The position numbers were made by a program, and so were the translations under genes. A DNA stretch of 35,458 nt, from NCBI GenBank assembly GCA_016218275.1, contig JACREK010000001.1:1-35458 (forward strand), written 5' to 3'. The DNA comes from Candidatus Gottesmanbacteria bacterium. Its GTDB lineage: Bacteria; Patescibacteriota; Microgenomatia; 2-02-FULL-39-11. How positions within the stretch are numbered: position 1 is the first letter of the stretch; every line of letters begins with the position of its first letter. This document shows, piece after piece, positions 5,499 to 31,229 of this stretch. The notes below the pieces were generated by a model, which saw only the letters and a program-made list of their open reading frames with translations, ran no database searches and was not told the DNA's origin.

Positions 5499-6257
5499 GA
5501 AACGGGTTCGTTTTATATATGATGAACCGGTAGAATTACTCAAGAAGAAGATGTTTTATATACGATAACTTCCTCTGATAATCTTTCTGATCCAGAACAA
5601 ATTTTTGATAATTCTCCCTTGAGATATTAGCTATTATCATTCTTGGGTCAACTATATTAGATTTTTCTTTTCCCAGATAGATCAAATAAGAAGAGTAGGG
5701 ATAGTCCTCAGGTTTTTCAACTAAATAGCCAGTAACTGGATTAAGATGAATATAACGAGAAAGATGGAAAAGTTGCTCATCTGTTTCTACTCGTACCGCT
5801 TTGAAATTTCCCTCAAAGACCGGACCTTTTGTCTGAGATTTTAGATTAAAATAATGAGCATAACTATTAGAAAGTCTCTGAATAAATTGTCTTATTCCAT
5901 TGTCCATCTCTTGTTTGAGGGTAAAATGAAAATGGGTAGGCATGAGACAAAAATTAATGATGGTAACGGTTCTTTTCTTAAAATCAACCGAGTATTTGTT
6001 TTTATGGCTACGATAAATTGAAAATCGTATTGGAGGATTGGCTTGGAGATAATATTCTATCGCTTCAAAGAATAACTGATAATCCCACTTTGTATTGAAA
6101 ATTGGGATTGTGCGAACGGAACGATTGAAAATATGATAGACTTCACCACTCGCTAAAATCGTCCTTCTATGTCCCATCGATTTTTACTCTACCTTAAATT
6201 TACCGGTTCGTCAATAGGAAAACGAACCGGGATCGTTAAGACTGAACCCGTTTCGTT
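5496..6257 (-). mobile_element. RAYT/IS200-like unit: Y1 transposase gene bracketed by two nested inverted-repeat pairs
   Basis: AACGAAACGGGTTC (5496-5509) is the exact reverse complement of GAACCCGTTTCGTT (6244-6257). The inner pair is TGAACCGGTA (5523-5532) against TACCGGTTCG (6201-6210), matching 9 of 10. There is an extra local hairpin, CCGGTTCGT (6203-6211) with ACGAACCGG (6222-6230). Confidence 0.7.
5536..6177 (-). CDS. IS200/IS605-type Y1 (HUH) transposase, REP-associated tyrosine transposase (RAYT)-like
   Basis: 213 aa. HUH motif in PTHFHFTL. A C-terminal Tyr motif RYIHLNPV is followed by PEDYPYSSY, as in RAYT/Y1_Tnp proteins. Confidence 0.8.
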   Translation of the reverse strand: MGHRRTILASGEVYHIFNRSVRTIPIFNTKWDYQLFFEAIEYYLQANPPIRFSIYRSHKNKYSVDFKKRTVTIINFCLMPTHFHFTLKQEMDNGIRQFIQRLSNSYAHYFNLKSQTKGPVFEGNFKAVRVETDEQLFHLSRYIHLNPVTGYLVEKPEDYPYSSYLIYLGKEKSNIVDPRMIIANISRENYQKFVLDQKDYQRKLSYIKHLLLE

Positions 6258-14062: not shown

Positions 14063-14989
14063 TTACTTCCTATGAAATCTTTGGTGGATCTCCCGAAGCT
14101 GAGGATTGGTGACATGAGTGTAGATTTGGGTAGTGGCAATGTTTTTGTGACCAAGCATCTCCTGAATGGAACGCAGATCAGCGCCTCCTGACAATAAATC
14201 TGTCGCGAACGAATGGCGGATGCCATGTGGGGTGATTTTAATCGGAAGCCTTCCCTTCCTGGCGTATTTTTCCACAATCCGCTGGATGCTTCTTGCGGTC
14301 AGACGAAAACCTTCTCCGGCTTTTCCTTCTTCTGCCTTCTTTCCGGCATACCTGATAAACAATGGGGCAAAAGCATCTTCCCTGGTTTTCAGGTATCTTT
14401 CCAACCAAAGACAAGCTGAGTCTGATAAAAAAACTACACGGGGCTTACCACCTTTGCCAATAACGCCAAATTCTTTTCTATCAATATTGATTGAATCTCT
14501 ATTAAGTCTGACCAACTCGCTGACCCTAAGACCGGTACTAAAGAGCATTTCCATAATGGCTTTATCACGAAGCCCTTGTGGAGTAGAAATCTCGGGCATA
14601 TTAAGAAGTCTTTCCACCTGTTCTCTGTCTAAAAATTTTAAAGATCTGCTCTCGGCTTTGCCCAATTCTACTTTCTCGGGATTAAGAGCGGCAATATTTT
14701 GGCGAATTAAAAATTTCAAAAAAGCGCGAAGAGCAATTAAATGATAATTCTGGGTGATATGCTTCAGAGTCAAACCGTGCTTGTCTGCAAATCTAGATAA
14801 ATATAATCTAAAAGATCGGATAAATTCCGGAGTAATTGAGGCAATATCTGACAGAGGAGGGGATTGGGAGGCGCCAAACTGTAAAAAACGGTTTAAATAA
14901 TGACGGTAATTCCGGATAGTGAGCTTAGAACAGTTTCTTTCAAGCTCCAGATATACTAAGAATTGGTTGACGGCATCCTCAATGGACAT
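14063..14989 (-). CDS. Xer-type tyrosine recombinase/integrase
   Basis: 308 aa. It has an N-terminal SAM-like core-binding domain (LELERNCSKLTIRNYRHYL). The catalytic domain carries GLRVSEL, HGIRHSFATDLL, LGH, and Tyr in TQIYTHV. Confidence 0.85.
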   Translation of the reverse strand: MSIEDAVNQFLVYLELERNCSKLTIRNYRHYLNRFLQFGASQSPPLSDIASITPEFIRSFRLYLSRFADKHGLTLKHITQNYHLIALRAFLKFLIRQNIAALNPEKVELGKAESRSLKFLDREQVERLLNMPEISTPQGLRDKAIMEMLFSTGLRVSELVRLNRDSINIDRKEFGVIGKGGKPRVVFLSDSACLWLERYLKTREDAFAPLFIRYAGKKAEEGKAGEGFRLTARSIQRIVEKYARKGRLPIKITPHGIRHSFATDLLSGGADLRSIQEMLGHKNIATTQIYTHVTNPQLREIHQRFHRK

Positions 14990-15118
14990 ATAAATTAAAT
15001 TTATTTTGCGATGATACTATCGTCGCAACAATAAATTTGAAATTGTATGACGTTTTTTAACGTCTATACAATTTCTATTTTGCGACATTTGAAGTAGTTT
15101 TGTCAAGATGTTTTATAA

Positions 15119-15307
15119 CTGACCCACCTGCAGTTTGAATATAGATTGTTCTAGTCATCCCGAGCGTAGTCGAGGGATCTCTCATATTTCAAGAATTATG
15201 GATATCTTAAGCTCGTCGCAGTAGAGTTTGAGAGATCCCTCCACTCCCTTCGGTCGGTCGGGATGACGGATGAATTGAGGCTAAACCGCAAAGTGCAGGT
15301 GGGTCAG
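15119..15307. repeat. Nested palindromes: 14-bp perfect IR enclosing a GTCATCCCGAG element
   Basis: CTGACCCACCTGCA (15119-15132) pairs with TGCAGGTGGGTCAG (15294-15307). These enclose GTCATCCCGAG...TCGGGATGAC (15154-15267). Confidence 0.85.
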
Positions 15308-15677
15308 GTTTTATAATTTCTAGCGCAGCAATATGAAATTTTCGATGATCGCCCCTCGGAGCCTCGGGGTAAACATCGCTTGCTTGCCCTGAGCAAGGTA
15401 AAACCGAGCGAAGGGCGAGCAAGAAAATTTTATATGCGAGCTAGAAATGATTCATAAAAATGACCCTCTATAATGCCCTAGAAAGGCTTTTAAATATTTC
15501 AGACGAGGAATTCTTTGTCTTTGTTGTCATTCCGAATTTATTTCGGAATCTATAATAGATCCTGAAACAAGTTCAGGATGACACTGCTGTGTGAGTTTCG
15601 GAAATCTTTCATAACAGATATTTTTCCAGTCGGGAAGAAAATGTGTAAATTAAATGGAAAATTAAAATTTCTAAAGT

Positions 15678-15716
15678 CCATTTTGCGACTGTCAAAACTT
15701 TGACGTTGCAAAATGG
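15678..15716. repeat. CCATTTTGCGAC...GCAAAATGG hairpin element
   Basis: CCATTTTGCGACTGTCAAAACTTTGACGTTGCAAAATGG. It has the same termini as the in-frame folD insert at 13642-13684. The ATTTTGCGA motif also occurs at 15004 and 15078. Confidence 0.8.
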
Positions 15717-15723
15717 ACGCCTT

Positions 15724-15756
15724 GCTTTTACGACATACGTTATATGTCGTAAAAGC
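15724..15756. repeat. Perfect 14-bp stem hairpin
   Basis: Stem GCTTTTACGACATA, loop CGTTA, stem TATGTCGTAAAAGC. Confidence 0.8.
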
Positions 15757-15989
15757 ATTATTGTGCGAACTATTAGCAATTCCGTTCCCTATCTGTCAGA
15801 ATCCCAACTAATTTAGCTTTGAAGTCGGACTTTATTATCTCGGAAGAGAGAATACTTGGTTTTCCAGTCCTAGGAGTATAGAGATGTAACCTCTTCTTCA
15901 TTTATTATTATAATCACTTCCGTATAGTACGTAACTATAGATATATAAGATATATAAAAGGGTTTTCGGTTTTTTTCCATTGCACTCGA

Positions 15990-16178
15990 TTTAGCGCATT
16001 ATTATGCTCTAAACTGTTTATTCTGAGACTAAATAAATAAGTTACTTGCCTCGGGACGATCCCGACGTTACGTCGGGATCACTTTAGGGCTTTATTAGGC
16101 TCTAAATTAATAAGTCCGAAGCTGATTTTAGGCGAATATAAGAAAAGAGTTTAGTTTAGAGCGTTATTATGCTCCAAA
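15990..16178 (+). repeat. Three direct copies of a 24-bp palindromic box, TTTAGNGCNTTATTAKGCTCYAAA
   Basis: Copies at 15990-16013, 16083-16106 and 16155-16178, all in the same orientation. Each has 8-bp inverted arms around an 8-bp AT-rich centre. Confidence 0.8.
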
Positions 16179-16232
16179 TTATTAATTTTATGCGTAAATT
16201 TAGTGTTCAATTCCCCTCGGATCCGTGCTCCA

Positions 16233-16274
16233 ACGATCCAGGATCGTTTCTACGGGAGTTCGATCCTGGATCGT
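16233..16274. repeat. 14-bp perfect inverted repeat
   Basis: ACGATCCAGGATCG (16233-16246) and CGATCCTGGATCGT (16261-16274), separated by a 14-nt loop. Confidence 0.8.
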
Positions 16275-16484
16275 ATCTCATCCGTGAAAAGCTGGAATAA
16301 ATATCGTGAAAACTATCCACATTCGCTCCCTTCGTCGCTGATGCTCCTCAGGGTAAACCCTTCGGTCGCTCAGTGTAAACACATTTTATTACTATACTAT
16401 TACTATAGGATATTATAGGCCTGTGTTATATCAAACTATATCACCCTTCATCCCTTCACCACTTCCCTCTTCCCCGCCGAAACA

Positions 16485-16556
16485 ATCAATTAATTATCCA
16501 ATTATCAAATTATCCAATTCTCAAATAATCAAATATTTTTGATTGGATAATTTGTC
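16485..16556. repeat. ATTATCCAAT-family palindromic element, copy A (right arm truncated)
   Basis: AATTATCCAATTATCAAATTATCCAATTCTCAAATAATCAAATATTTTTGATTGGATAATTTG, ending at the stop codon of the 16561 gene. Confidence 0.85.
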
Positions 16557-16560
16557 TCCC

Positions 16561-22030: not shown

Positions 22031-22034
22031 AAGA

Positions 22035-22138
22035 ATCAATTATTCAATTATCCAATTATCAAATTATCCAATTCTCAAATAATCAAATATTACTTATTGG
22101 ATAATTTGTTGATTTGAGAATTTGTTGATTGGATAATT
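22035..22138. repeat. ATTATCCAAT-family palindromic element, copy B (complete)
   Basis: The left arm is AATTATCCAATTATCAAATTATCCAATTCTCAAATAATCAAATATT. The right arm contains the 41-mer TGGATAATTTGTTGATTTGAGAATTTGTTGATTGGATAATT (22098-22138), identical to 23111-23151 and 31189-31229. Confidence 0.9.
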
Positions 22139-22940: not shown

Positions 22941-23153
22941 AAATTATCTAATTATCCAATTCTCAAATAATCCAATAATCAAATATTTTTGATTGGAACC
23001 TATCTCAAAACCTCGAAAAACTATATTGTTCGAACGTAGTGAGAACTTCTCGCTGGAGTTTATCCCGAGCGAAGTCGAGGGACTCGAAGAATAGGTTTTG
23101 AGATGACTTCTGGATAATTTGTTGATTTGAGAATTTGTTGATTGGATAATTAT
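22941..23153. repeat. ATTATCCAAT-family element, copy C/D, split by an inserted second element
   Basis: The left arm is 22941-22997 and the right arm is 23111-23153. See the mobile_element 22998-23110. Confidence 0.85.
22998..23110. mobile_element. 113-bp MITE-like insertion with 12-bp terminal-proximal inverted repeats and a TGGA target-site duplication
   Basis: ATCTCAAAACCT (23002-23013) pairs with AGGTTTTGAGAT (23093-23104). TGGA at 22994-22997 and 23111-23114 flanks the insert, whereas intact copies read GATTGGATAA. The interior carries TATCCCGAGCGAAGTCGAGGGAC. Confidence 0.7.
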
Positions 23154-24267: not shown

Positions 24268-24280
24268 AATATTAAATAAA

Positions 24281-24368
24281 CCAATTATCCAATTCTCAAA
24301 TAATCCAATAATCAAATATTTTTAATTTGAGAATTTGTTGATTTGAGAATTTGTTGATTGGATAATTT
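24281..24368. repeat. ATTATCCAAT-family palindromic element, copy E
   Basis: It shares the 28-mer GATTTGAGAATTTGTTGATTGGATAATT with copies B, D and G. It contains the MFS stop codon (24312). Confidence 0.85.
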
Positions 24369-25601
24369 AATAATATTATTTGCTCTTCGTCTTTGCAAGT
24401 AATGATATGCCCCTATTATCAACACTACAAAACCAATAATCGCTAGTGTCTTCCCTACTCCAATTACATCAGCCAAAAGTCCAGAAAACAAAACCGGTAA
24501 AAGAGAAACTCCTCCAGTAAGTGAAGTCAGTACTCCGTAAACTCTTCCGCGCATATCACTTTTTGAATCTTCCTGAAGGATTGTATTTGCCGGAACACTG
24601 ATGAAAGAGTTAGATACCCCGAGCAAAAAAAGCAAAATAATGACAGCCAGAAAGTTATTTCCCTGACTTAATCTTGTAGCCAGAGACAACAGCAACAGAA
24701 CTACAGCGGAAATACTGATGCCTGACAGTATAATTGACCCTTTCAGAAACTTAATGCCGAATCCCCCTATCCACACTGCACCGATAATTAAACCTACCGC
24801 GGCAGGCCCCATCACCAGATATGATGCTTCAGTCAGGGCAATTCTTAGAACTTTATCCGCAAATCCCGGAGCAAGTACAGCTAAGGTAGAGATAAGTGCC
24901 TGGGAAAAAGTCACCAGAATCAGGCTTTGGGTAATACGCTCGTTGGATTTTATAAAGAGCAGTCCATCCTCAACAGTCTTACCGATGAAATTTAAATTCA
25001 TATGAATATCCAGATTTCTTTTTTTTGGTTTAATCGGAGGCACTAAATAAACAAAATATGTCGCCAGAAGCATTATAAAAGTCATTATCAGATACACGTT
25101 GCGGAAGCCAAAAATATTAAGCATAGGTCCGGAAAGTATAAAACCGGTAATTGTGGAAAGATAAAAACTGACGGTAAAAAGAGAATTAGCGGTCAGAATA
25201 TCGGAAGGCTCAACCAGAATAGGGATAGACGGGGCTTCCGCCGGCACAAATAATTGGGTAACAATTGATATTATTATAATCAGCGCATAAATGGCCAGAA
25301 GATTTGATTGTAAGAAAAATAAAGCCAGAAAGATTAAGACCCGAAAGATATTACAGAAAATAAGCACCAGCCGTTTGTCGAAAAAATCAACCAATCCTCC
25401 CGCAAGAATTCCAAACATAATTGAGGGGATTCCGAATGCCAAAAGCATCAGCGAAACTGCGGTGTTGGAGTGCGTTTGTTGATAAACGCGAATCGCCAGA
25501 ACAAATATCAGCATGTTGAGTGCTATTTGAGAGCTAATTTGTCCCAGCCAAAGATTGCGAAACTTAGGATTTTTTACAACTGCAAGATAAGAACTAATCA
25601 T
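24312..25601 (-). CDS. MFS transporter
   Basis: 429 aa with about 12 TM segments. The C-terminal tail KLSNQQILKSTNSQIKNI is read from repeat E. Confidence 0.8.
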   Translation of the reverse strand: MISSYLAVVKNPKFRNLWLGQISSQIALNMLIFVLAIRVYQQTHSNTAVSLMLLAFGIPSIMFGILAGGLVDFFDKRLVLIFCNIFRVLIFLALFFLQSNLLAIYALIIIISIVTQLFVPAEAPSIPILVEPSDILTANSLFTVSFYLSTITGFILSGPMLNIFGFRNVYLIMTFIMLLATYFVYLVPPIKPKKRNLDIHMNLNFIGKTVEDGLLFIKSNERITQSLILVTFSQALISTLAVLAPGFADKVLRIALTEASYLVMGPAAVGLIIGAVWIGGFGIKFLKGSIILSGISISAVVLLLLSLATRLSQGNNFLAVIILLFLLGVSNSFISVPANTILQEDSKSDMRGRVYGVLTSLTGGVSLLPVLFSGLLADVIGVGKTLAIIGFVVLIIGAYHYLQRRRANNIIKLSNQQILKSTNSQIKNI

Positions 25602-27169: not shown

Positions 27170-27259
27170 TTAATCAACTAATTATCCAATCAACAAATTC
27201 TCAAATTAACAAATACAATATTATTGGATTATTGGTATTTATTGGATAATTGGATAATT
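27170..27259. repeat. ATTATCCAAT-family palindromic element, copy F (divergent)
   Basis: AATTATCCAATCAACAAATTCTCAAATTAACAAATACAATATTATTGGATTATTGGTATTTATTGGATAATTGGATAATT. Confidence 0.8.
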
Positions 27260-27266
27260 CTTTAGT

Positions 27267-27295
27267 TTGACTATTCAAGTTTAACAAAATATAAT
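27267..27295 (+). promoter_or_regulatory. Near-consensus sigma70 promoter driving the tRNA locus
   Basis: TTGACT (27267-27272), an exactly 17-nt spacer, then TATAAT (27290-27295). Confidence 0.7.
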
Positions 27296-27368
27296 CGGAA
27301 CAGTCAATTGGTAGAGTTTAGTAGAGTTTATTCTGAGAGTTTACTCTGAGCAGCTTAAGCTGCGAAGA

Positions 27369-27574
27369 GCCGCGGTGCTGGAACTGGCAGACCACAAAAT
27401 GGGCGGGTGCTGGAATTGGCAGACAGGTAAGTCTCAAAAACTTATGGCAGACAACTGCCGTGAGGGTTCAAGTCCCTCCCCGCCCACACGTGGCAGGCAG
27501 GCTAAAATGTGAGGGTTTACAGTGAAAAATCATCGCAATGATTTTTTACTGTTCAAATCTCTCCCGCGGCACCA
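27369..27574 (+). other. Split class II tRNA-like sequence enclosing the tRNA-Leu gene (disrupted tRNA or pseudogene?)
   Basis: GCCGCGG (27369-27375) followed by TG and a Leu-like D-arm. At the 3' end: GAGGG (27511-27515), a 36-nt palindromic insert, TTCAAAT, CTCTC, CCGCGGC, A, CCA (27552-27574). No anticodon arm is present. Confidence 0.4.
27401..27486 (+). tRNA. tRNA-Leu(CAA), class II
   Basis: Folded by hand. Acceptor GGGCGGG/CCCGCCC is a perfect 7 bp. U8. The D-loop carries GG. Anticodon stem TAAGT/ACTTA with loop CTCAAAA. The 17-nt variable arm pairs GGCAG/CTGCC. T-arm GAGGG-TTCAAGT-CCCTC. Discriminator A. CCA is not encoded. Confidence 0.9.
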
Positions 27575-27622
27575 AAAGGGCTTGCACTGAAAATTTTCGA
27601 CAGAAAATTTGAAGTGTTCGAC

Positions 27623-28771
27623 TCACACCCTCGGCATCCTGTCTAACATAGTTAAATCTAAAGGCTTTTCTACTAATAATTGTATTCTTCCATCAGGAGG
27701 ATAAACTCTATTTAATTCTTTAACTCGCTTAATATTGTGTCCAGATAAATATCTAACTATTCCTTCCTGTCTTACTCCATCCAACCAGTCAAAAACTAGG
27801 GGAACTTCTCTATCTAACATTTCCAATTGTCCATCTTTTCCAGGAGTCGACTTTCGCCAATCGAATGAAATATCCATAACGCCTCCAACTTTTAGAGTAT
27901 AAAGCGCATTAATTAGTGCTATATGCGGATATCTCATATAGGTAAAAGCTGTGCGTGATAAAACAACATCAAAACTTCTCGAAAATTGCTGGGGTAATCT
28001 TTCGGCTAGTCCAAGCAAATGTCCACCTCTAAGAGGAAAAACACTTAGCTGTGGTTCACGAGTTAAATTCGTCACCGATGAATGACCCTCCATCTGTTCT
28101 AATTCGTTGGCTGCTAAACCATTACTGCCACCTATATCTAAAATAGCGATTTCGTCTGTGGGATTTTTCTTTTGGGCTTCCCGTGTAGTTTCTAATAATT
28201 TTTTTAAATCATCCTTATTCCTATAGTAGCTGTGTCCGAGTGGATCGATTAAATTCCTTGTTCCCCAAGGGCAAAGTGAATTTGTTTGGGCTAGACCGTC
28301 AACTTCAGTCACTACCCGTGCATCTAACCATATTTTTGGATCTGTTAATAAAATTGCTTTTGCTTGAGGAGATAAGAAAGGAAGATGATCTTTACGTTGC
28401 ACTCGACTGGCTAATTTTCCTGTTATAAATAGAGGGTACTCCCATTCCCTAAATGGCCTAGTGGAATCATAGCGAGAAGAATCAGTAACATAAACTACTT
28501 TTCTATCTCCAAGTGCTCTATACTTAACTCTTTCATTATAATCCTCGTATAGTTTTGTAATATCACTTCGCAAATTTTGTTCTTTGTCTACAGGAAGAGG
28601 AATAAGGGGCTCTGCGGTAAAATATGCCTCTACGATTTGTCCAATCTCTTCATTTTCAAGACTTCGAAACTTACCTGCAAAAATATTGTCGAAAAATATT
28701 TTTGTAACAGGATGAAAATGTTTTGGAATACGCGATGCTGTTGTATCAAGAGACTCGATTACTTTTGACAT
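27623..28771 (-). CDS. Hypothetical protein with C-terminal class I SAM-dependent methyltransferase domain
   Basis: 382 aa. Motif I ILDIGGSNG, then FDVVLSRTAF and LKVGGVM. I do not recognise the N-terminal 200 aa or so. Confidence 0.6.
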   Translation of the reverse strand: MSKVIESLDTTASRIPKHFHPVTKIFFDNIFAGKFRSLENEEIGQIVEAYFTAEPLIPLPVDKEQNLRSDITKLYEDYNERVKYRALGDRKVVYVTDSSRYDSTRPFREWEYPLFITGKLASRVQRKDHLPFLSPQAKAILLTDPKIWLDARVVTEVDGLAQTNSLCPWGTRNLIDPLGHSYYRNKDDLKKLLETTREAQKKNPTDEIAILDIGGSNGLAANELEQMEGHSSVTNLTREPQLSVFPLRGGHLLGLAERLPQQFSRSFDVVLSRTAFTYMRYPHIALINALYTLKVGGVMDISFDWRKSTPGKDGQLEMLDREVPLVFDWLDGVRQEGIVRYLSGHNIKRVKELNRVYPPDGRIQLLVEKPLDLTMLDRMPRV

Positions 28772-28936
28772 TACTTGGTATTAATTGTACGCGATAGATA
28801 GTGTAAAATCAAAAAGGAAAAATTACCGGCAGTGCTGGAAAAGAATTACCCTTCCTTCTTCTCCACTCCGTAAATCTGATCCAGTTAGCTTCACTAAAAT
28901 GGCAACTATTTATTTCTTGACAATTATCTACATTTA

Positions 28937-28958
28937 CGACAAAATACTCCTCGAGGGA
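28937..28958 (+). repeat. 22-nt CGACAAAATACTCCTCGAGGGA, copy 1 (overlaps promoter/5' end of the PaaX-like gene)
   Basis: Identical to 29663-29684. It ends 4 nt before ATG 28963. TTGACA lies at 28917-28922 upstream. Confidence 0.8.
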
Positions 28959-28962
28959 TAAA

Positions 28963-29613
28963 ATGTCGCCAAAGAATTTACCATTGCCAGATGAAGAAAA
29001 AATCACTACTCTTTGTAAAATTCTCCAGCGAAAATTAACAAAGGAAGAAACAAGGAGAAAATATGCCCCGGCGAAACATATACTCACGCTTTTGGGGGCT
29101 GGAGCTTTTCTCACAATGGCAATGATAGCTCCCAATACAATTCGACTGGGAAAGACATTTTTGCAAAACGATGACTGGAAAAATTGGAAGAAATATAATC
29201 CATTTTACCTGCGTAGAGCCATAAAGCGATTACAAAAAGAAAAATTAGTGGAAATATCTGAAGAAAGTGATCAACAAGTAATTAAACTTACTCAAAATGG
29301 AAAAAGAAAGATCATCAAATATTCTCTTGCCGAATTAGAAATTGCCACACCAAAGTCTTGGGATGGTAAATGGCGAATAGTAATCTATGATGTAACTTCT
29401 GCTAAACATGATCTTCGGACATCTTTTAGAGAGACACTAAAAAGTCTTGGCTTTCTACAACTCCAAGAAAGTGTCTTTCTCATCCCCTACCCGTGTGATA
29501 AGGAGATAACTTTCTTAAGAGAATATTATGGGGTTGGCAATGAGGTAATCTACATCATCGCTCATAAACTGGAAAATGAGGATATATATCGTGATTACTT
29601 TGGATTAGTCTAA
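28963..29613 (+). CDS. PaaX-type protein: N-terminal winged-helix-like region plus Cas2-like ferredoxin-fold domain
   Basis: 216 aa. WDGKWRIVIYDV...RTSFRETLKSLGFLQLQESVFLIPYP matches the beta1 (IVxYDV) and Q-x-SVF signatures shared by the Cas2 and PaaX middle domains. Confidence 0.6.
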   Translation: MSPKNLPLPDEEKITTLCKILQRKLTKEETRRKYAPAKHILTLLGAGAFLTMAMIAPNTIRLGKTFLQNDDWKNWKKYNPFYLRRAIKRLQKEKLVEISEESDQQVIKLTQNGKRKIIKYSLAELEIATPKSWDGKWRIVIYDVTSAKHDLRTSFRETLKSLGFLQLQESVFLIPYPCDKEITFLREYYGVGNEVIYIIAHKLENEDIYRDYFGLV

Positions 29614-31130: not shown

Positions 31131-31136
31131 AATAAC

Positions 31137-31229
31137 AATTATCCAATTATCCAATTTTCAAATTATCCAATAATCAAATATTACTGATTGGATAATTTGT
31201 TGATTTGAGAATTTGTTGATTGGATAATT
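31137..31229. repeat. ATTATCCAAT-family palindromic element, copy G (complete)
   Basis: It contains the identical 41-mer at 31189-31229. The stop codon of the MBL gene (31229-31231) sits at its edge. Confidence 0.9.

Follow-up and report, generated by a model that had tools for sequence, protein, structure and literature searches.

Remains of a displaced tRNA-Leu(CAA) gene around its presumed replacement, and recurrent, probably nuclease-driven overwriting of tRNA-Leu genes in bacteria of the candidate phyla radiation

The DNA analyzed here, referred to as the window, is a complete 35,458-bp contig of Candidatus Gottesmanbacteria bacterium, a member of the candidate phyla radiation (CPR)/Patescibacteria, in which an intact tRNA-Leu(CAA) gene is nested between two halves of another tRNA-Leu gene. 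Sequence comparison indicates that the outer halves are genuine homologues of tRNA-Leu(CAA), the remains of a dead orthologous resident gene that was replaced by the inner one. Such replacement is recurrent and horizontal in the related genomes. The scar in the window is probably non-functional, and what it exposes is probably a nuclease-driven, recurrent overwriting of tRNA-Leu genes in CPR bacteria. Across the CPR, tRNA-Leu genes and displaced tRNA 5' parts occur in physical linkage with a small GIY-YIG nuclease gene and a double hairpin.

A total of 160 related loci were fetched for comparison, and 64 of them pair pepA, the leucyl aminopeptidase gene, with a tRNA-Leu(CAA) gene. Individual loci are designated by L-numbers (L001, L175, etc.). 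Relatedness between genomes is given below as the percent identity of pepA. The best relatives of the window are Gottesmanbacteria and Microgenomates genomes. An nhmmer profile was built from 64 intact tRNA-Leu(CAA) genes and scanned over the 64 regions.

Displaced halves of the resident tRNA-Leu(CAA) gene

The inner gene (Table 1), recognized in an earlier note made from the sequence of the window alone, was recovered by both ARAGORN and Rfam. It is the sole tRNA detected in the window by ARAGORN (at 27401-27487), and its match to the Rfam model spans positions 1-71 and reaches 53.2 bits, the gathering score being 29. With its full cloverleaf, long variable arm, A73, and above-threshold score, it qualifies as a class II tRNA. 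A tRNA of the same GGGCGGG type is the sole, clean gene at the orthologous locus in L011, L016, and L091. The inner gene is presumably functional and represents the foreign allele that did the replacing.

The outer 5' half is real and one base longer than previously noted (the end is at 27392, not 27391). In L175, whose pepA is 67% identical to that of the window, an intact tRNA-Leu(CAA) gene, GCCGCGGTGCTGGAACTGGCAGACAGGCAAGTCTCAAAAACTTGTGATGTGAAAACATCGTGAGAGTTCAACTCTCTCCCGCGGCAC, occupies the corresponding position and is preceded by the same promoter and by a homologous leader. The outer 5' half matches this gene at 24 of 24 positions and the intact genes of L104 and L111 at 23 and 22 of 24 positions, respectively; in the profile scan it was detected with an E value of 0.0065. 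The identity to L175 settles the earlier concern that the outer acceptor pairing might be partly an artifact of the self-complementary CCGCGG.

On the 3' side, all the pieces that had been pointed out are present, including the acceptor strands, paired at 7 of 7 positions, and a T-arm (GAGGG/TTCAAAT/CTCTC) that is restored upon excision of a palindrome. In a global alignment, the first of these pieces (27491-27515) follows the L175 tRNA from the D-loop onward; the variable arm has been lost completely, as has the anticodon arm apart from a stub. The T-arm and acceptor end show two differing positions compared to L175, and GAGGG together with the 3' end matches both L111 and L014 at 22 of 25 positions. 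The intact T-loop of L175 (GAGAG TTCAACT CTCTC) does not contain the palindrome. The encoded CCA and the self-complementary CCGCGG acceptor sequence were inherited, because both are carried by the intact orthologues in L111 and L013. Of the earlier proposal of a decayed tRNA-Leu paralogue or recombination scar, the decay and the insertions have stood up; the word "paralogue" has to be dropped, since the gene is an orthologous former resident that is still intact in L175.

The same note had considered a co-transcribed precursor scaffold, and the outer halves could conceivably fold around the inner tRNA into a functional scaffold resembling a tRNA, or into a split tRNA, guiding the processing of the inner one or yielding a second RNA. 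The minimum-energy fold of the 206-nucleotide (nt) stretch does contain the outer acceptor helix (z = -5.6), the outer 3' end encodes CCA, and a helix closing around the inner gene is found with differing sequences in the window (CCAC/GTGG, as noted earlier, at 27392-27395 and 27490-27493), L009 (CCACG/CGTGG), L081 (11 bp), and L115 and L024 (CCTGCC/GGCAGG). However, it is the inner tRNA and the perfect palindrome that account for the z-score, the CCA comes from an intact orthologue, and the window's helix is not conserved in the relatives. The outer molecule has no anticodon arm and no variable arm, its T-loop is interrupted, and it receives no score from tRNA models even after splicing. Rfam gave no tRNA match outside 27401-27486 even at E values of up to 10, and ARAGORN found no tRNA in constructs without the inner gene or without both the inner gene and the palindrome. 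The model check suggested in the earlier note thus left the outer halves unscored, as would fit a dead gene rather than a functional tRNA; homology beyond chance came from L175. Further, the 3' half is missing in L007, L120, and L087 despite their shared 5' junction, deletions and hairpin insertions in the remnants vary from locus to locus, and many relatives have a clean single gene. A functional scaffold is therefore highly improbable, and the reading of the locus as a fossil is very likely to be right. Judging from standard processing, the locus most probably serves now as a simple tRNA gene whose leader and trailer are long.

Several other explanations were discarded. A tmRNA (transfer-messenger RNA) or permuted tRNA was rejected, as ARAGORN with tmRNA and intron options reported nothing besides the inner gene. 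No Rfam intron or ribozyme was found in the window, nor, at E values of up to 1, in L120, L172, L111, L102, and L173, which excludes a group I intron. Inspection by hand revealed no bulge-helix-bulge of the archaeal intron or split-tRNA type at the junctions of the window, L115, and L009, and the 4-bp helix that such a motif needs cannot be built between the start of the intron and that of the 3' exon; the splicing endonuclease gene was not searched for.

Junctions, promoter, and an older layer

The 5' junction, GGYAGAC followed by CAC[A/G]AA[A/T]AT, also occurs in L007, L009, L120, and L185, in differing genomic backgrounds. The 3' junction is common to the window and L009 (ACG, then TGGCAGGC), past which L009 continues with its own resident type. 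An assembly chimera, held up in the earlier note as a finding that would undo its reading, is excluded by the presence of the same junction in independent assemblies (L007 in four metagenome data sets, L009 in two, L120, and L185). The insert is surrounded by TGGCAGAC/TGGCAGGC, an 8-nt direct repeat. One of the nuclease genes described below (L186, ...CACAAGTAATT) ends in codons and a stop similar to the linker CACAAAAT, a resemblance that is no more than a hint.

The promoter proposed previously was confirmed: it matches 11 of 12 consensus positions and is conserved almost base for base in relatives, the block TTGACT...AACAAAATATAAT...AGTCAAT being found upstream of the orthologous tRNA in many related loci and in identical form in L172. 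The end of the leader (...CTGAG..GCGAAGA, then GCCGCGG) is homologous to the leaders of L175, L087, and L173.

A further remnant downstream of the resident gene matches the intact GCCGAGG-type tRNA of L176 at 20 of 24 positions and is the probable third, outermost layer of the locus. A (G)CCGAGG-type 5' half occurs at this locus in L172, the closest relative (pepA 83% identical), and in L087; in L172 it comes straight after the same promoter as in the window. The sequence AATTGGTAGAG at ~27306-27316 may, tentatively, be a D-loop scrap of this layer. The locus would thus hold three generations of tRNA-Leu(CAA): a probable outermost one of the GCCGAGG type, a middle one of the GCCGCGG type, which is certain, and the intact innermost GGGCGGG-type gene. 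A hairpin at 27585-27616 aligns weakly to the tRNA anticodon and variable region and is not claimed as a remnant.

Table 1. Features of the tRNA-Leu(CAA) locus in the window and double hairpins in related loci
Feature	Position	Strand	Evidence
Sigma-70-type promoter (TTGACT, 17-nt spacer, TATAAT)	27267-27295	+	11/12 consensus positions
Transcribed leader native to the resident (middle-layer) gene, with hairpin (inverted repeat) at 27344-27369	27296-27368	+	Homologous leaders in relatives
5' remnant GCCGCGGTGCTGGAACTGGCAGAC, nt 1-24 (acceptor strand, D-stem, D-loop) of GCCGCGG-type tRNA-Leu(CAA)	27369-27392	+	24/24 to L175
5' junction CACAAAAT, resident remnant to inner gene	27393-27400	+	Recurs in relatives
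tRNA-Leu(CAA), GGGCGGG type, intact, no encoded CCA	27401-27486	+	ARAGORN, Rfam RF00005
3' junction CACG	27487-27490	+	Common to L009
Resident gene resumed: D-loop copy TGGCAGGC, anticodon stem-loop stub (AGGC..T..AAAA), T-stem 5' strand (GTGAGGG)	27491-27515	+	Alignment to L175
A+T-rich 36-nt palindrome in the T-loop of the dead resident gene	27516-27551	.	Arms of 15 nt, 93% complementary
Resident 3' end TTCAAATCTCTCCCGCGGCACCA: rest of T-loop, T-stem 3' strand, acceptor 3' strand, A73, encoded CCA	27552-27574	+	Homology
Probable 3' remnant GAAGTGTTCGACTCACACCCTCGGCA of older GCCGAGG-type tRNA-Leu(CAA): T-loop, T-stem, acceptor strand CCCTCGGC, A73	27611-27636	+	nhmmer E = 0.057, model positions 63-86
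Double hairpin	L120:2787-2847	-	Upstream of GIY-YIG open reading frame
Double hairpin	L172:244-305	-	Upstream of GIY-YIG open reading frame
Double hairpin	L178:2433-2493		Upstream of GIY-YIG open reading frame
Double hairpin	L179:2435-2495		Upstream of GIY-YIG open reading frame
Double hairpin	L185:994-1055		Upstream of GIY-YIG open reading frame
Double hairpin	L186:2437-2497		Upstream of GIY-YIG open reading frame

Recurrent replacement of tRNA-Leu(CAA) in related genomes

In the profile scan, 23 of the 64 regions showed additional, incomplete copies of tRNA-Leu(CAA) next to the intact gene, a count that includes some duplicate assemblies and very weak matches. Remnants are found in at least 20 loci from independent assemblies, and 5' remnants are commoner than 3' remnants. 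The types involved change places: L173 has an outer gene of the GGGCAAG type and an inner one of the GCCGCGG type, the reverse of the window, and the GCCAGAG type is the inner one in L020 and L024 and the outer one in L115. The outer gene of L115 is intact save for an insertion exactly between nucleotides 32 and 33.

Genome pairs whose pepA genes are 88-97% identical carry tRNAs that are just 67-92% identical. Thus, at 93% pepA identity, the tRNAs are 81% (L001/L002) and 67% (L102/L105) identical, and at 88% the values are 67% (L019/L020) and 74% (L013/L111). In pairwise DNA alignments of L001/L002, L102/L105, and L111/L013, near-identical flanks break exactly at the tRNA, and in L001 both halves of an L002-type gene surround the foreign gene. 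The pair L114/L115 (pepA 97% identical) has tRNAs that are 92% identical, and six of the seven differences are paired changes in the acceptor stem, altering three base pairs, while the tRNA bodies are identical. Such a pattern would suggest either that recombination took place within the tRNA or that the acceptor stem is under diversifying selection. The stems read GGCGCGG/CCGCGCC in L114 and GCCGAGA/TCTCGGC in L115. Acceptor stems with a mismatch or wobble pair were also found (A7/C66 in L185, A6/C67 in L017, and G5/U68 in L102).

Partial tRNA copies of this kind might also be left by an integrase-type element, such as a phage or an island, that used the tRNA as its attachment site and was later excised or deleted. 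Indeed, tRNA genes are classic integration sites, an archaeal tRNA fragment next to a mobile element has been described (PMC3293823), and the window encodes an XerC/D-like recombinase at 14063-14989. That gene, however, lies 12 kb away among housekeeping genes, and no integrase was seen beside the tRNA in any locus examined. Attachment repeats are near-identical 3' pieces located kilobases apart, whereas here the halves of a different allele flank a complete gene within ~100 nt and, among the relatives, it is the 5' remnants that prevail. An integrase scar is accordingly very unlikely.

Palindromes and hairpins at the locus

The palindrome in the T-loop of the dead gene has no second copy within the window, so its interpretation as a repeated element was rejected. 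The sequence GGCAGGCAGG at 27492-27501 was tried as the end of a mobile cassette and rejected as well: the L175 alignment shows that it belongs to the D-loop and anticodon stem of the resident itself. With relaxed Rfam settings, the region and the loci that carry the nuclease gave just the tRNA and chance microRNA-like matches on the palindrome.

Upstream of the tRNA in L110 and L111 there is a perfect G+C-rich palindrome, (ACCG)CCTGCCTGCC/GGCAGGCAGG(CGGT), whose sequence comes from the D-loop and anticodon stem of the tRNA; in L111, the GIY-YIG open reading frame (ORF) follows it immediately. Its structure suggests that these loci undergo template switching or a repair process that generates hairpins. 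In L009 and L081, two distant genomes, a ~30-nt hairpin (TTAGGACGT...ACGTCC) is inserted downstream of the intact tRNA, at nucleotides 31/32 of the dead outer gene. The two hairpins have the same ends, and their inner stem sequences differ yet still pair.

GIY-YIG nuclease genes linked to tRNA-Leu

The eight independent GIY-YIG copies examined (L120, L102, L111, L172, L179, L185, L186, and L178) are all located directly upstream of tRNA-Leu on the same strand, and seven of them abut the gene or its 5' remnant within a few bases. The ORFs of L120, L102/L103, and L111 encode 79-86 amino acids (aa) and end 0-40 nt upstream of the tRNA; their Pfam E values are 1e-16, 1e-16, and 1e-11 for L120, L102, and L111, respectively. 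L105 and L013, close relatives of L102 and L111, have a different tRNA and no nuclease. In L172, the promoter, which is identical to that of the window, is followed by a GCCGAGG-type 5' part reaching to the anticodon, a ~52-nt two-hairpin element, the remainder of the anticodon stem-loop, a GIY-YIG ORF reduced to its C-terminal half (PF01541, E = 0.0044), another 5' scrap, and finally a different tRNA-Leu(CAA).

Homologues of the L120 protein are numerous (411 at E < 1e-8), are ~83-85 aa long, and come, where the source is named, from various CPR phyla. Four homologue contigs were looked up regardless of context to see whether the link to tRNA-Leu is special to the pepA locus. In three of the four, a complete tRNA-Leu begins 0-5 nt downstream, namely, tRNA-Leu(UAA) in Roizmanbacteria (L179, L182), tRNA-Leu(CAA) in L185, and tRNA-Leu(UAG) in L186; in the fourth, from Kuenenbacteria (L178), the contig ends just as a tRNA-like sequence starts. 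The common layout consists of the promoter, the tRNA-Leu 5' part up to nucleotides 33-35, the double hairpin, nucleotides 34/36 to 43, the GIY-YIG ORF, and a complete tRNA-Leu, at times followed by a 3' remnant (L186). Upstream of the hairpin, the 5' part is the same as that of the complete downstream gene throughout its 35 nt in L179 and 36 nt in L120 and, in L178, over the part that is not masked by N.

These nucleases belong to the UPF0213/YhbQ-like stand-alone branch of the family, with matches to PDB entries 1zg2 (E = 4e-12) and 1ywl (E = 1.5e-9) and, more weakly, to SLX1 (E = 0.0045) and the catalytic domain of I-TevI. The positions of the catalytic Tyr, Tyr, Gly, Arg, His, and Glu residues are conserved.

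The double hairpin (Table 1) is ~52 nt long and has the consensus CCCWGNACC-ACGTN-GGGTNCWGGG-TR-CCCCAAACC-CNNCGT-GGTTTGGGG. It is located in the anticodon loop of the displaced tRNA-Leu copy in five of the six loci and after nucleotide 15 in L186. In an alignment of only six sequences, its 18 base pairs are 93.5% paired, four pairs are changed on both sides, and the covariation score was reached by none of 500 shuffles. It matches no Rfam family; candidate roles include a nuclease substrate, an mRNA leader, and an intron relic. A literature search for double-hairpin elements gave nothing usable, and no link to those of fungal mitochondria is claimed.

All this could be viewed as the product of ordinary recombination with taken-up foreign DNA, through break repair, microhomology, or template switching, without a dedicated nuclease and with the GIY-YIG gene as a passenger. 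Among the genes of the window are those for PilB, PilT, and PilC, proteins of a type IV pilus that may take part in DNA uptake. The conserved D-loop sequence TGGCAGAC is present on both sides of the insert and in the inner gene, making microhomology available, palindromes of the template-switch type abound at these loci (e.g., in L110, L111, and L024), and the window itself has neither the nuclease nor the double hairpin. On the other hand, none of the GIY-YIG copies was found away from tRNA-Leu in the ~1 Mb of loci examined, all eight sharing its orientation; the presence of the nuclease coincides with allele replacement in close pairs; and the same short junction recurs in different backgrounds. 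Taken together, these observations make recombination with the nuclease as a mere bystander unlikely, although for the scar of the window itself it is conceivable.

Proposed mechanism of tRNA-Leu replacement

In the proposed scenario, the resident GCCGCGG-type gene would have been broken in its D-arm by DNA that carried a complete foreign GGGCGGG-type tRNA-Leu(CAA). The foreign inner gene would be the only functional copy now, the single tRNA-Leu(CAA) next to pepA having been replaced repeatedly, and 27369-27636 would represent a fossil stack. The old promoter presumably still drives the locus, with the dead 5' half as part of the leader, and, by analogy with standard bacterial tRNA maturation, RNase P, 3' processing, and CCA addition would free the inner tRNA. 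The dead 3' half would have later lost its anticodon and variable arms and gained the T-loop palindrome.

The arrangement in the relatives suggests that the driver could be a CPR mobile element consisting of the ~52-nt double hairpin, a domain-only GIY-YIG gene (~85 aa), and a tRNA-Leu copy directly downstream. The nuclease is predicted to cut uninterrupted tRNA-Leu genes in or near the anticodon loop, and repair from the donor would then copy the element, with the conserved tRNA halves as homology arms. The tRNA copy of the element, or its 5' half downstream of the nuclease gene, would regenerate an intact gene with no need for splicing, and the old 5' half would stay upstream. Chimeric tRNAs may result, as in the acceptor-stem mismatches of L185, L017, and L102. 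After fixation, the nuclease gene would decay, as in L172, and be deleted, leaving a 5' half, a short linker, and the gene. The window would then be a late-stage scar of such an element.

Several observations weigh against this scenario. Neither a GIY-YIG ORF nor a remnant of one was detected near the locus in the window by tblastn with three full-length GIY-YIG proteins and the L172 remnant, and the covariance model of the double hairpin found no match in the window at E values of up to 10; because of this, the link between the window and the nuclease element is drawn by analogy with the relatives. The ~85-aa nuclease is a catalytic domain only, with no recognizable DNA-binding domain, so that its site-specific cleavage is a prediction. 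A complete inner gene within the 8-nt repeat TGGCAGAC/TGGCAGGC, followed by the resident 3' half, is not what simple homing of a hairpin-nuclease-tRNA unit would produce. No phage or plasmid donor was found. The inner tRNA pattern had no match in viral contigs, the nuclease profile recovered from them one distant copy that is not beside a tRNA, and the 11 matches to the junction pattern, none with a tRNA, were dismissed as chance. Finally, the sampled loci were chosen via pepA or via the nuclease only and do not provide a frequency estimate.

Taken as a whole, the combination of a fossil stack with the nuclease element as its proposed driver is likely to be the best explanation of the data. 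That the GIY-YIG element caused this particular scar, judging from its relatives, is slightly favored. The chances are about even that it represents an undescribed class of bacterial mobile elements, widespread in CPR/Patescibacteria, that home into the anticodon loops of tRNA-Leu (CAA, UAA, and UAG) and bring along a replacement tRNA or 5' half.

Other features of the window

The locus is surrounded by ordinary chromosomal genes, which include those for pilus ATPases, gyrB, gyrA, an H+-pyrophosphatase, folD, lgt, an MFS transporter, pepA, and dnaB. Its immediate neighbors are pepA and a methyltransferase-like ORF (27623-28771, minus strand), which is followed by a PaaX/Cas2-like ORF (28963-29613, plus strand) between the tRNA locus and dnaB. 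This segment of ~2.1 kb (27623-29613) looks like a further insertion at the same hotspot, because in L175 and L176 dnaB directly follows the tRNA.

A 213-aa ORF at 5536-6177 on the minus strand contains a weak IS200-like Y1 transposase domain (Pfam E = 4.9e-6). IS200-like Y1 enzymes act on hairpin DNA, and this ORF could be relevant to the palindrome insertions. Next to the XerC/D-like recombinase gene, ~1.5 kb (14990-16560) lack both a credible match in Rfam and any ORF of at least 80 aa. An 8-nt unit, AATTATC(C/A), forms arrays at gene boundaries, often accompanied by an inverted array (TTGGATAATTTGTTGAT), with 32 matches in the window compared to 0.76 expected by chance. The arrays are located at 16492-16534, 22034-22138, 22942-22985, 23111-23151, 24275-24375, 27172-27260, and 31136-31229, one of them between pepA and the tRNA promoter, and may represent a binding-site or promoter-proximal motif.

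Implications and comparison with known systems

Considered alone, the feature in the window is a pseudogene scar and a warning for annotation, as tRNA finders see the inner gene only. More generally, foreign alleles can, within one genus, overwrite tRNA genes, which are usually among the slowest to evolve. If the scenario described above is true, it implies rapid horizontal turnover of tRNA-Leu alleles, with chimeric tRNAs, swaps of whole acceptor stems, and onion-like stacks of dead halves, and it would explain the differences in tRNA-Leu acceptor stems between almost identical CPR genomes. The involvement of the nuclease would further mean a new selfish strategy, in which an essential RNA gene is disrupted and paid for with a spare copy, and would provide a candidate function for the large family of uncharacterized small GIY-YIG (UPF0213-like) proteins. 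Endonuclease-bearing insertions are known in CPR rRNA genes (PMC11270868), and such invasion would then extend from rRNA to tRNA genes. Neither nested tRNA genes nor a GIY-YIG element in bacterial tRNA-Leu genes were found described in the literature, which, given the incomplete coverage, is absence of evidence only. The UPF0213/YhbQ-like stand-alone GIY-YIG proteins (1zg2, 1ywl) are the closest solved relatives of the tRNA-Leu-linked nuclease; the literature searched assigns them no role in mobility or in relation to tRNA genes.

A group I intron in the anticodon loop, at the classic U34/A35 site, occurs in bacterial and plastid tRNA-Leu(UAA). Bacterial group I introns have been reviewed (PMC3984707). 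Similarly to these introns, the double hairpin of the relatives is an anticodon-loop insertion in tRNA-Leu, and its site at nucleotides 33-35 adjoins U34/A35. However, no ribozyme is present here, the ~52-nt element is far too short to be one, and function is restored by a spare gene and not by splicing.

The phage T4 nuclease SegB is a GIY-YIG enzyme encoded in the T4 tRNA gene cluster; it cuts the corresponding region in genomes without SegB and, through gene conversion, is passed on together with the neighboring tRNA genes. Seg proteins possess a DNA-binding domain, and their action takes place between co-infecting phages. Reviews cover the free-standing homing endonucleases found in T4-like phages (PMC2988022; PMC13096335). 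The likeness lies in a GIY-YIG nuclease gene among tRNA genes, but the Seg proteins leave no nested tRNA halves, and no phage copy of the present element was found.

Disrupted tRNA genes are also known in archaea, with non-canonical introns and with split and permuted tRNAs, and a Caldiarchaeum tRNA-Thr fragment lies next to a mobile element (PMC3293823). There, as here, gene pieces accompany a gene that is intact or has been reconstituted, and their origin has been ascribed tentatively to a mobile element. The archaeal pieces, however, rebuild a working tRNA by means of a bulge-helix-bulge and a splicing endonuclease, whereas the pieces described here are dead.

Fungal mitochondria contain mobile endonuclease ORFs (mORFs), found in atp6 of Allomyces and in atp6, atp9, cox2, and nad3 of Glomus, that bring along a foreign replacement C terminus and leave the native one behind as a pseudogene (PMC3630166). 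The resemblance includes an endonuclease gene (GIY-YIG or LAGLIDADG) in an essential gene, a foreign copy of the displaced part, an adjoining pseudogene made of the native part, and alleles that differ sharply between very close relatives. Both the duplicate of the target and the displaced native segment are seen in the window, the endonuclease ORF is seen in the relatives and not in the window, and the presence of the cassette is patchy, with discordant alleles among close relatives, as expected of a mORF-like cassette. In contrast to mORFs, which occupy mitochondrial protein genes, the present system concerns a chromosomal tRNA gene of bacteria, and the replacement is a whole tRNA or its 5' half that lies downstream of the nuclease gene. 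The nuclease is a protein of ~85 aa without a DNA-binding domain, it is accompanied by a conserved double hairpin, and in the window it is gone.

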